Sequence record: NC_054917.1
Source of the DNA: Escherichia phage vB_EcoM_G50
Direction: 5' to 3' (one strand)
DNA: 64,000 nt
In this document: one piece after another, positions 22,543 through 25,698 of the stretch
How the letters are laid out: each line of letters begins with the position of its first letter
Numbering within the stretch: the first letter of the stretch is position 1
Program-made: the position numbers and the translations under genes
The notes under the pieces: generated by a model
Databases searched by the model: none
What the model was told of the DNA's origin: nothing
The model's input: only the letters and a program-made list of their open reading frames with translations

Positions 22543-23003
22543 AGAGAGTCTCTTAATAGATTTAACACATCAATAAATTCAGCTTCGGTTAGTATTGTAT
22601 CATCTTTTGTTAGACCACTAGCCATGCTGTGCTTCAAAACTTTTCCTTTCGAGGCTTGTAATGCATCGCGAAAGCCCTTGTTTTGGAACGCTGCTTCAAA
22701 ATATGCATTTGTGTATAATTCTTTCCATGCTTCGGAATATCTTGAAAACGGAGTTCCAAGCCAGAACAACGTGCCACGGTCCTGAGCTCTTGCATAAGAC
22801 CTTCCAGCTTGTTGGGCGGCAAGCCCGGATAACCCAAATATACGACGCTGTTGTTCAACATTTTTCACCTTGCATCCTTGGAGGAATCCTTCGAGACCTC
22901 CAAATTGGATACCATCCATAACAAAAGGCCATTGGGCGAAATTACTTAATGCACATGATGGCCATCTAAAATTGCTTCTAATCTCTAACTCAGACATTTT
23001 CAA
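22539..23003 (-). CDS. NADAR / YbiA-like (DUF1768) protein (T4 30.3 position)
   Basis: 154 aa; SNFAQWPF..DG..F...EGFLQGCK pattern resembles E. coli YbiA SNFAAWPI..DG....SEHYFQAQK. Confidence 0.7.
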   Translation of the reverse strand: MKMSELEIRSNFRWPSCALSNFAQWPFVMDGIQFGGLEGFLQGCKVKNVEQQRRIFGLSGLAAQQAGRSYARAQDRGTLFWLGTPFSRYSEAWKELYTNAYFEAAFQNKGFRDALQASKGKVLKHSMASGLTKDDTILTEAEFIDVLNLLRDSL

Positions 23004-24542: not shown

Positions 24543-24571
24543 AACTTTATGCAATCTTTGGAAAATAAAAA

Positions 24572-24591
24572 AGGACTCCCGAAGGAGTCCT
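24572..24591 (-). terminator. Terminator hairpin
   Basis: aggactcc-cgaa-ggagtcct followed on minus strand by TTTTTTATTTT. Confidence 0.55.
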
Positions 24592-24595
24592 CAAC

Positions 24596-24772
24596 TTATG
24601 CTTTCTGCTTACCAAAACGAGAAGCATCATCTCGAAGAACCGCACGTGCTCGGCGCATGATCTTCTCAACAGTTTGATTGATACGAGAGTTCGACCCACG
24701 CTTGTAACCAGCGCGTTTAGAATCACCAACTTTCTTTTCAACTGCTTTCTTTGCTTTAGCTTGTTTTGCCAT
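24596..24772 (-). CDS. Small highly basic protein (Lys/Arg-rich), possibly nucleic-acid binding
   Basis: MAKQAKAKKAVEKKVGDSKRAGYKRGSNSRINQ...; start placed at internal ATG with better Shine-Dalgarno than the upstream ATG at 24814. Confidence 0.5.
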   Translation of the reverse strand: MAKQAKAKKAVEKKVGDSKRAGYKRGSNSRINQTVEKIMRRARAVLRDDASRFGKQKA

Positions 24773-24966
24773 TATAAATTCTCTTTTAAATGAAAATGCA
24801 GGACTTATTGGCATTGCCTGCGAAAGCCCTCAAGGGGTACTTAGGTTTTGAATATTTACCGACAGGATAACCATAAACCTCGTCAACATTCAAGAGGTAC
24901 ACCGTAAAACAAAGTTCGACGGCTCCTCGTTTTAACTTCACACTAAGGCAGTGACTCTCCAATAAA

Positions 24967-25215
24967 TTACTTCAGTGTTACCACAAAGTGACGAACTGCT
25001 TTTCGTGCAGCAGAAGCCAGAGGCTTAGCATACTTAAGTTCATCTTTTTCCTGAAGCTCAGCGGCTAATGCAGTTTGAGCAGGATTCAGATGTTTGAAAT
25101 AACGCAGGATTTCAAGAGCTTCGGCTTCAACATCAATAGATGCGCCATAGTTTTCGTGACCATTATTCCATGCGTTTCGTTGCAGTTCAAGAGCGTGTTG
25201 TAATTGTTTAATCAT
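24967..25215 (-). CDS. rIII: rIII lysis-inhibition accessory protein
   Basis: 82 aa, MIKQLQHALELQRNAWNNGHENYGASIDVEAEALEILRYFKHL...; size and position (just before gene 31) as T4 rIII. Confidence 0.85.
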   Translation of the reverse strand: MIKQLQHALELQRNAWNNGHENYGASIDVEAEALEILRYFKHLNPAQTALAAELQEKDELKYAKPLASAARKAVRHFVVTLK

Positions 25216-25354
25216 TTAAAAATTCTCGTTAGAGATTAAAACTCGGTAGTCACGTTCTTCTGAATTTCATCTTCTTTCGACAGATCTCTCAGTTGTAGAC
25301 TACCACATAGAATTGTTCGGTTAACTTATTATTCCGACACCCAATTCATATTAT

Positions 25355-25362: not shown

Positions 25363-25698
25363 TCACTTATAAAGACACGGAATAGCTTTATAGTGACAGG
25401 TTACGAATTTTTGTTTAATTTCTTTTGGCTGCTTAAGACCCAGAGCTACAAAAGGATGAGGAACGTTTCGAATTTGACCAACTGGAAGAGAAGTCAAATC
25501 ACCAACTTCGCAGAAACCTTCAGGAACATCAGGACCAACAGAGTGAACTACACACAGTTCAGGAACTTCACCTTGGACACGTTTACCAATAATAAGTCCT
25601 GATTCTGTAACTTCTTCATCACCGGCTTGCGCAGGTTCAGAAACTAAAATAACATATTCACCGACAGCACGAATTGGTAGCTGTTGTACTTCAGACAT
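25363..25698 (-). CDS. 31: Co-chaperonin gp31 (GroES functional analogue)
   Basis: 111 aa, [61 protein letters not shown]...; matches T4 gp31. Confidence 0.95.

Follow-up and report, generated by a model that had tools for sequence, protein, structure and literature searches.

ToxI is the tandem-repeat RNA antitoxin of the type III ToxIN (ToxN/AbiQ) abortive-infection systems. Phages are known to carry solitary CRISPR-repeat RNAs (RNA anti-CRISPRs) and orphan protein antitoxins (Dmd; DarG-like), which share with the element described here the decoy logic of an orphan copy of a host system's component, and which concern other defence systems and other molecules. The pseudo-ToxI of phage PhiTE (Blower et al. 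2012, PLoS Genet, PMC3475682) suppresses ToxN once it has expanded, and its wild-type form of 1.5 repeats is inactive. In T4-like phages, TifA (gp61.4; PMC9391042, PMC10853763) is a small protein that binds RNA and sequesters ToxN on cellular RNA. It has been reported that wild-type T4 is strongly restricted by E. coli toxIN and that escape occurs through amplification of tifA, the gene for this protein inhibitor (PMC9391042). The rIII-30.9 locus analyzed here is not mentioned in the two TifA papers (PMC9391042, PMC10853763). Among open-access papers and preprints, no description was found of ToxI-like units, either in T4-type phages or in tRNA arrays, and in the literature searched the phage pseudo-ToxI kind was found to be documented for PhiTE only.

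The window, by which we mean the whole stretch of 64,000 nucleotides that was analyzed, belongs to a T4-like phage of the genus Tequatrovirus. Over 24560-25260 it shares 100% identity with Escherichia phage SA20RB, and at least 80% of this region is covered by 651 phage records. On the minus strand the gene order is gp31 (25363-25698), rIII, an intergenic gap, 30.9, a terminator and 30.8. The rIII gene (24967-25215, minus strand, 82 aa, stop codon at 24967-24969) belongs to phrog_1457, lysis inhibition, and gene 30.9 (24596-24772, minus strand), a member of phrog_1427, encodes a very basic protein of 58 aa; both products are 100% identical to their T4 counterparts. Between these two minus-strand genes lies a non-coding gap of 194 bp (24773-24966). 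A solitary 32-nt unit of the ToxI family, GGAGAGUCACUGCCUUAGUGUGAAGUUAAAAC (24929-24960, minus strand), was detected in this gap with a covariance model. It begins six bases 3' of the rIII stop codon, from which it is separated by the spacer UUUAUU (24961-24966, minus strand). A conserved hairpin module, B2 (GAGGAGCCGUCGAAC-UUU-GUUUUACGGUGUACCUC followed by UUGAAUGU; 24886-24928, minus strand), adjoins the unit on its 3' side. The part of the gap proximal to 30.9, module A (24773-24885, minus strand; G+C content of 38.1%), is a conserved untranslated leader of 30.9 that includes a CCCCUUGAGGG hairpin at 24827-24837 and lies outside the ToxI-like module.

A terminator scan detected a strong intrinsic terminator with a 9-bp stem, a UUCG loop and a U-run at 24562-24592 (minus strand), which is also annotated in the SA20RB record, and no minus-strand terminator within the rIII-30.9 gap. 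Since the first terminator downstream of rIII comes after 30.9, the unit should be co-transcribed with both genes: rIII is its upstream neighbor, whose transcript would carry the unit, and 30.9 is its co-oriented downstream neighbor. The 3' end of 30.9 together with the terminator (24557-24640, minus strand) gave a weak Rfam match to Atu_C8, with 31.4 bits against a gathering score of 50. This match recurs in T6 and ECML-123-2 and is probably driven by the terminator hairpin.

An initial annotation of this DNA had flagged the segment 24815-24966 as richer in G+C than its surroundings, which was confirmed by calculation: G+C content is 43.4% versus 35.8% for the window, and the segment falls in the top 4.9% of 152-nt windows (about +1.7 SD). 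The excess is genuine yet modest. A local G+C peak of 51%, above that of the flagged segment, was observed at 22650-22950, in the 30.2/30.3 region. The sequence quoted in the initial annotation and the short stems named there are present as well (ACCTC...GAGGT at 24877-24898 and CCCC..GGG at 24827-24837); the informative part of the ToxI-like module is not these stems.

Other elements of the initial annotation were not confirmed. It had seen no ORF of meaningful length in the segment. However, a 58-aa ORF with a TTG start (24786-24962, minus strand) spans the gap and is annotated in a few GenBank records, including those of SA20RB and PinkRuby, and an ATG-extended version of 30.9 also extends to 24814. 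That this mechanically present ORF is a small protein-coding gene is nevertheless highly improbable. Across the gap, T4 and the window share approximately 91% nucleotide identity, with 12 mismatches and 52 gap columns, whereas the flanking coding sequence is identical at 34 of 34 positions in the 3' end of rIII and at 176 of 177 positions in 30.9. The indels relative to T4 measure 1, 44, 5, 1 and 1 nt, so that no frame survives and we do not regard the 58-aa ORF as a gene; at this level of identity, indels of 1, 5 and 44 nt break its frame in T4, T6 and other phages. In addition, no PHROG family matches the ORF, in contrast to rIII and 30.9, and no Shine-Dalgarno sequence is visible ahead of its TTG start.

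It had also been stated that the 30.x array has one ORF fewer than that of T4, and a decayed gene was offered as one explanation of the segment. All 12 T4 proteins from 30.1 to gp31 were matched full-length in the window (84-100% identity), with 30.1-30.9 all present. In the alignment to the T4 30.9-rIII region, which had been proposed as a check, the homologous gap in T4 is larger (244 bp), with indels that break every ORF frame. The gene count was all that had spoken for a remnant of a decayed 30.x gene; because the T4 gap is larger and no T4 gene is missing, this reading was rejected, and we assign it practically no probability. The further suggestion of a small RNA or a structured 3' UTR came nearest to the truth, in that the module is located in the 3' UTR of rIII, and what it left unrecognized was the relation to ToxI. 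A tRNA or tRNA-like element was considered and dropped, as ARAGORN predicted no tRNA in the window or in the unit-containing spacers of other phages.

The motif next to rIII resembled the 36-nt ToxI repeat, and the relationship to ToxI was therefore tested with a covariance model, R1, built from 20 distinct bacterial ToxI units and no phage units. In the 64-kb window, R1 yielded one significant match, at 24927-24960 on the minus strand (32.6 bits, E = 9e-5); the next match scored 11.7 bits. The annotated and experimentally studied PhiTE pseudo-ToxI, used as a positive control, scored 40.8 bits, and the corresponding sequence of IME340, a close relative that lacks the rIII-proximal module and served as a negative control, scored 6.8 bits. 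Base for base, the unit equals the array units of Pantoea and Idiomarina, except for a loop shorter by 2 nt and the 3' junction. The missing nucleotides fall at U16-U18, where ToxI tolerates changes in loop length (PMC3475682).

Pseudoknot pairs were assigned with the ToxI numbering of PMC3475682. Stem B (9-25, 10-24, 11-23) is 100% paired in the bacterial units, with covariation at two of its pairs, and pairing in the phage copies is likewise 100%. For the window unit, the H-type pseudoknot predicted from these positions has three of three Watson-Crick pairs in stem B and two of three in stem A (G2-C15, G3-C14); its A4/G13 combination occurs in the Pantoea and Idiomarina array units too. The ends of the unit read UUAUU-GGAGAG on the 5' side and AAAAC-GAGGAG on the 3' side, without the AAAU/AAUC junctions of most array boundaries (ToxN processing sites are A-rich junctions of the AA^AU type), and the 6-nt spacer that stands where ToxI has its 5' single-stranded tail is unlike the AAUC/AUUC junction of bacterial units. 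The 3' junction varies elsewhere as well, being AAAUC in T4, GAAAAUC in Mosigvirus and AAAAACA in Vibrio arrays. On the strength of the sequence we regard the homology of the unit to ToxI as secure. A search of Rfam 15 gave no match in the gap at E <= 10, but a classical 5.5-repeat ToxI array (L027) was also unmatched at E <= 1, which renders the null result for the gap uninformative. Rfam 15 appears to be without a usable ToxI model, and the seeming absence of type III antitoxin repeats from this database partly explains why the phage copies are unannotated.

BLAST searches against plasmids identified tandem arrays of a near-identical unit immediately upstream of toxN and on the same strand, where the toxN genes are annotated as ToxN/AbiQ and match the Pfam family ToxN_toxin (PF13958, E about 1e-40). 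Arrays upstream of toxN include 5.9 x 38 nt in Shewanella baltica, 5.8 x 38 nt in Pantoea agglomerans, three units in Serratia nevei, four units in Vibrio navarrensis, and arrays of the classical type in P. atrosepticum and on small E. coli plasmids; on E. coli plasmid pCV839-15-p3, two units stand between a promoter and a terminator, with toxN next. When 185,579 species genomes were scanned with an exact pattern, six matches were obtained, three of which have toxN directly downstream (two single-unit Arsenophonus loci and Idiomarina). On the Arsenophonus chromosomes (L031 1152-1177 and L032 4009-4034), a single ToxI unit is located between a promoter and a terminator upstream of toxN, implying that, if these loci are functional, a bacterial type III locus can naturally have just one unit. 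Matches on Shigella dysenteriae plasmids were discarded as chance occurrences with no array. The ToxN subfamily that corresponds to the unit is distant from the ToxN proteins of known structure (E about 1e-25). The best-matching toxIN subtype, the pCV839 type, occurs on six E. coli plasmids in PLSDB. A megablast search of 5,426 complete E. coli genomes from RefSeq gave no match to it, and the presumed target is therefore rare.

The window unit resembles the PhiTE pseudo-ToxI in being a ToxI-homologous, non-coding sequence on the transcribed strand of a lytic phage with no toxN nearby. Searches by tblastn with five ToxN proteins detected no toxN in the window or in any of the phage loci, which makes the unit an orphan. 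Both elements are sense-oriented (the PhiTE copy is near a tRNA gene), both are scored by the same R1 model (40.8 bits for PhiTE and 32.6 bits for the window), and both are proposed or proven RNA mimics of the antitoxin. They differ in several respects. PhiTE, a Pectobacterium phage of the Vequintavirinae, carries 1.5 repeats of the P. atrosepticum subtype, whereas the window, from a T4-type phage, has a single unit, of the GAGUCACU...GUGUGAAG subtype, which occupies a fixed position 6 nt downstream of rIII and has a conserved hairpin on its 3' side. For PhiTE, activity after expansion has been demonstrated experimentally; for the window unit, activity is proposed. As regards PhiTE itself, its repeat GGTGATTCGCTACCTTAAGTGCGGGACGAAAATCCA (L042 703-761) is identical to that of a 13-copy array upstream of toxN on the P. 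atrosepticum 21A plasmid pPA21A (L026 1564-2039), which suggests that this pseudo-ToxI is the genuine antitoxin of a naturally occurring toxIN variant. Downstream of the PhiTE locus is a sequence resembling the 3' half of a tRNA (..GGTTCGAACCCGTCCAGTTCCACCA). The searches that revealed the other phage units also recovered the annotated PhiTE ncRNA.

With ToxI proper (Fineran 2009; Blower 2011; structures 2XDB and 7D8O), the unit shares the sequence family and the same predicted pseudoknot pairs. However, it is not tandem, consisting of one unit and at most 6 nt (GAGGAG) of a possible second. Instead of the promoter-unit-terminator-toxN arrangement it has rIII and 30.9 as neighbors, with neither a promoter or terminator of its own nor an adjacent toxN; its loop is 2 nt shorter, and the junction or cleavage motifs appear not to be conserved. 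Like TifA, the unit would represent a T-even counter-measure aimed at ToxN, but TifA is a protein, whereas the window element is an RNA homologous to the antitoxin.

The hairpin module B2 accompanies the unit both in T-even phages and in the tRNA arrays of Phapecoctavirus. One compensatory change was observed in its stem (CCGU..ACGG versus CCGC..GCGG). The window lineage and Phapecoctavirus share a short form of B2; in T4, T6 and Mosigvirus the loop contains an additional 44 nt, which lengthen the stem to 13 bp. This insertion (T4, L004 4676-4719; between positions 24910 and 24911 of the window) contains a perfect 8-bp hairpin, UAAUGAUU-UGCG-AAUCAUUA. B2 starts with GAGGAG, resembling the start of a second unit, and may either stabilize the 3' end or represent a decayed second repeat. 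As a second ToxI unit proper it was not retained: its score on R1 is below significance, and the resemblance of GGUG..UACCUCUUGAAUG is suggestive at most. Because the B2 loop has 3 nt in the window, the idea of an anticodon-loop mimic was dropped as well.

Additional non-coding sequences were observed in the same gap of other phages. An extra module of approximately 130-160 nt, GGCAAGTGCATGCTACCCCGAGG...GGAACCTTTAAGCTAACGGTGTGCAAC, is present in ECML-123-2 (L035 about 520-670) and Roth16 (L045 about 535-660); it follows directly after B2 in some Tequatroviruses and directly after the ToxI-like unit in Roth16, and searches for Rfam and tRNA matches in it were negative. At this point T6 and Mosigvirus have a different insert, of approximately 50 nt. 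For small mobile non-coding cassettes, the rIII-30.9 gap has the appearance of a hotspot.

BLAST searches with the gap alone demonstrated its modular composition. Module A (24773-24889 in this comparison) is widely conserved and, in some close relatives including IME340, is the only part left. Module B, the rIII-proximal 75 nt (about 24886-24960), comprises the unit and B2; it is missing from these relatives, whose rIII and 30.9 are intact, and is thus dispensable. It occurs with approximately 85% identity in the unrelated Phapecoctavirus, in a 93-nt spacer between tRNA-Gln and tRNA-Pro and on the tRNA strand. Its 5' third, GG[A/U]GAGUCACU-loop-AGUGUGAAGUU[A/G]AAA, recurs by itself in tRNA-array spacers of ChuuTotoro (Vequintavirinae), TrudiGerster (Epseptimavirus) and several uncultivated phage contigs, and also in intergenic DNA of Vibrio phages. 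In addition, a 1245-bp contig labeled as a Phocaeicola sp. MAG (L028) has tRNAs Trp, Thr and Asn followed by a unit whose core is identical to that of the window, GGAGAGTCACTGCCTTAGTGTGAAGTT; this is probably a phage contig misbinned into a Bacteroidota MAG. Pattern scans of IMG/VR gave 0-1 loci with strict and 12 loci with looser patterns. Five of these 12 loci (L013, L014, L015, L020 and L021) were discarded because they failed E <= 1 on R1. Among them, L013, L014 and L021 are near-identical and seem to match by coincidence, in a different sequence context.

Units of differing ToxI subtype were located downstream of rIII in five T-even groups: Tequatrovirus, Mosigvirus, Karamvirus, Tegunavirus and a Klebsiella T4-like phage. 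Besides the window type, this position is occupied by a diverged subtype in T4 and T6 (GGAGAUUCACUGCCUUAGUGUGAGCUAAAUC; 18.3 bits on R1), the classical subtype in Mosigvirus and TG1 (AGGUGAUUCGCUACCUUAAGUGCGGCUAGAAAA), and a further subtype in Roth16 (GGUGAUUUGCUACC..GUGCAGCUAGAAAU). More than 100 further phage records contain solitary units of the classical type, and the spacer between tRNA-Ser and tRNA-Glu of Erwinia phage IT22 is taken up exactly by one complete, mature ToxI sequence of this type. Phage units are single, with the exception of Klebsiella phage pzk-kv23, which has two tandem units after tRNA-Ile; no natural expansion of the unit was detected in the T-even records sampled. Every phage copy examined, from at least 12 loci of separate lineages, is in the sense orientation, co-oriented with the local tRNAs or genes.

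Within the 32-nt unit, T4 and the window differ by 3 mismatches and 1 indel, compared with 1 difference in 211 nt of flanking coding sequence, and the unit is among the fastest-changing stretches between the two phages. This fast change could reflect decay rather than diversification. The module might then be an inactive relic or recombination scar, left by exchange with toxIN plasmids or other phages and serving at most as raw material for rare expansion or recombination. The single unit, its imperfect junctions and the 2-nt loop deletion would fit such a history, as would the patchy occurrence of the module among close relatives, its greater divergence than that of the flanking genes, and the inactivity of the wild-type PhiTE locus. 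So would the fact that T4, whose copy has diverged to 18.3 bits, is restricted by toxIN (PMC9391042). On the other hand, the unit after rIII has been kept with intact stems in five T-even groups, unrelated phage families have cores almost the same as those of bacterial units, its sense orientation is invariant, units fit tRNA spacers exactly, and single-unit toxIN loci exist in bacteria (Arsenophonus). We consider an inert relic less likely than a decoy, yet of appreciable probability. The sense orientation, the post-rIII slot retained with varying subtypes, and the tRNA-spacer copies in unrelated phages are the signs that argue against a mere scar.

Location could also point to a role in cis, in which the element would serve the rIII-30.9 mRNA as a 3' UTR stabilizer, a processing site or a translational leader, with its likeness to ToxI being coincidental or ancestral. 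The unit is positioned in the rIII 3' UTR and upstream of 30.9, and a stable conserved hairpin lies 3' of it. It also opens with GGAG (24957-24960, minus strand), the recognition motif of the T4 endoribonuclease RegB, and might hence be a processing site. RIII, which is encoded just upstream, is reported to inhibit RegB activation through ribosomal protein S1 (PMC9409239). The T4 gap folds better than shuffled sequences (z = -3.3), whereas folding of the whole gap, a check proposed in the initial annotation, was unexceptional in the window (z = -1.27). Moreover, the unit is also found in the tRNA arrays of phages that have neither rIII nor 30.9, and upstream of bacterial toxN, and relatives without the unit keep rIII and 30.9 intact. 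A cis-acting role accordingly appears improbable to us.

The reading that we favor, by a modest degree of confidence, is that the non-coding module at 24886-24960 (minus strand) was acquired horizontally and that its 32-nt ToxI unit acts as a decoy antitoxin or as a seed for one. The phage probably makes a decoy antidote. With 6 nt between the rIII stop codon and the unit and no terminator before that of 30.9, the unit would be transcribed together with rIII and 30.9. The RNA may adopt a ToxI-type pseudoknot, with stem B formed by C9-G25, A10-U24 and C11-G23 and stem A by G2-C15 and G3-C14, and could then bind a cognate ToxN endoribonuclease, such as those encoded on E. coli pCV839-15-p3 and on Pantoea, Serratia and Shewanella plasmids. 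It would substitute for the labile host ToxI, which is lost upon shutoff of host transcription by the phage; ToxN would be kept inactive, and abortive infection would be averted. In its minimum role, the unit may be a seed able to expand or recombine into an active decoy, as in PhiTE. We infer a decoy function as the best-supported mechanism, and it is likewise by inference that we propose a discrete RNA, its folding into a pseudoknot, binding to ToxN and an anti-defence effect. T4 carries a diverged unit (18.3 bits), and its escape from toxIN does not proceed by expansion of this unit.

A broader proposal, which we put forward tentatively and as a whole, is that solitary ToxI units are widespread and largely unannotated RNA anti-defence decoys of phages. 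The post-rIII slot of T-even phages would swap in the subtype that matches the ToxN variants of their hosts, as exemplified by the window, T4 and classical types, and in tRNA spacers the host RNase P and 3' processing enzymes could free an antitoxin-sized RNA without the need for ToxN or an array.

T4 and its relatives are a reference for phage-host conflict, and ToxIN versus T4 is a current model of abortive infection, for which the TifA protein is the sole known T4 counter-measure. In hundreds of genomes the unit next to rIII has either no annotation or that of a spurious ORF, and the present analysis provides a simple sequence rule by which such decoys can be annotated. If the units are inactive, they still document recurrent exchange between phages and toxIN loci. 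If they are active, they would constitute a second, RNA-based counter-defence in T-even phages, extend the PhiTE precedent to a broad set of phages, and give a function to unexplained spacers in phage tRNA arrays.
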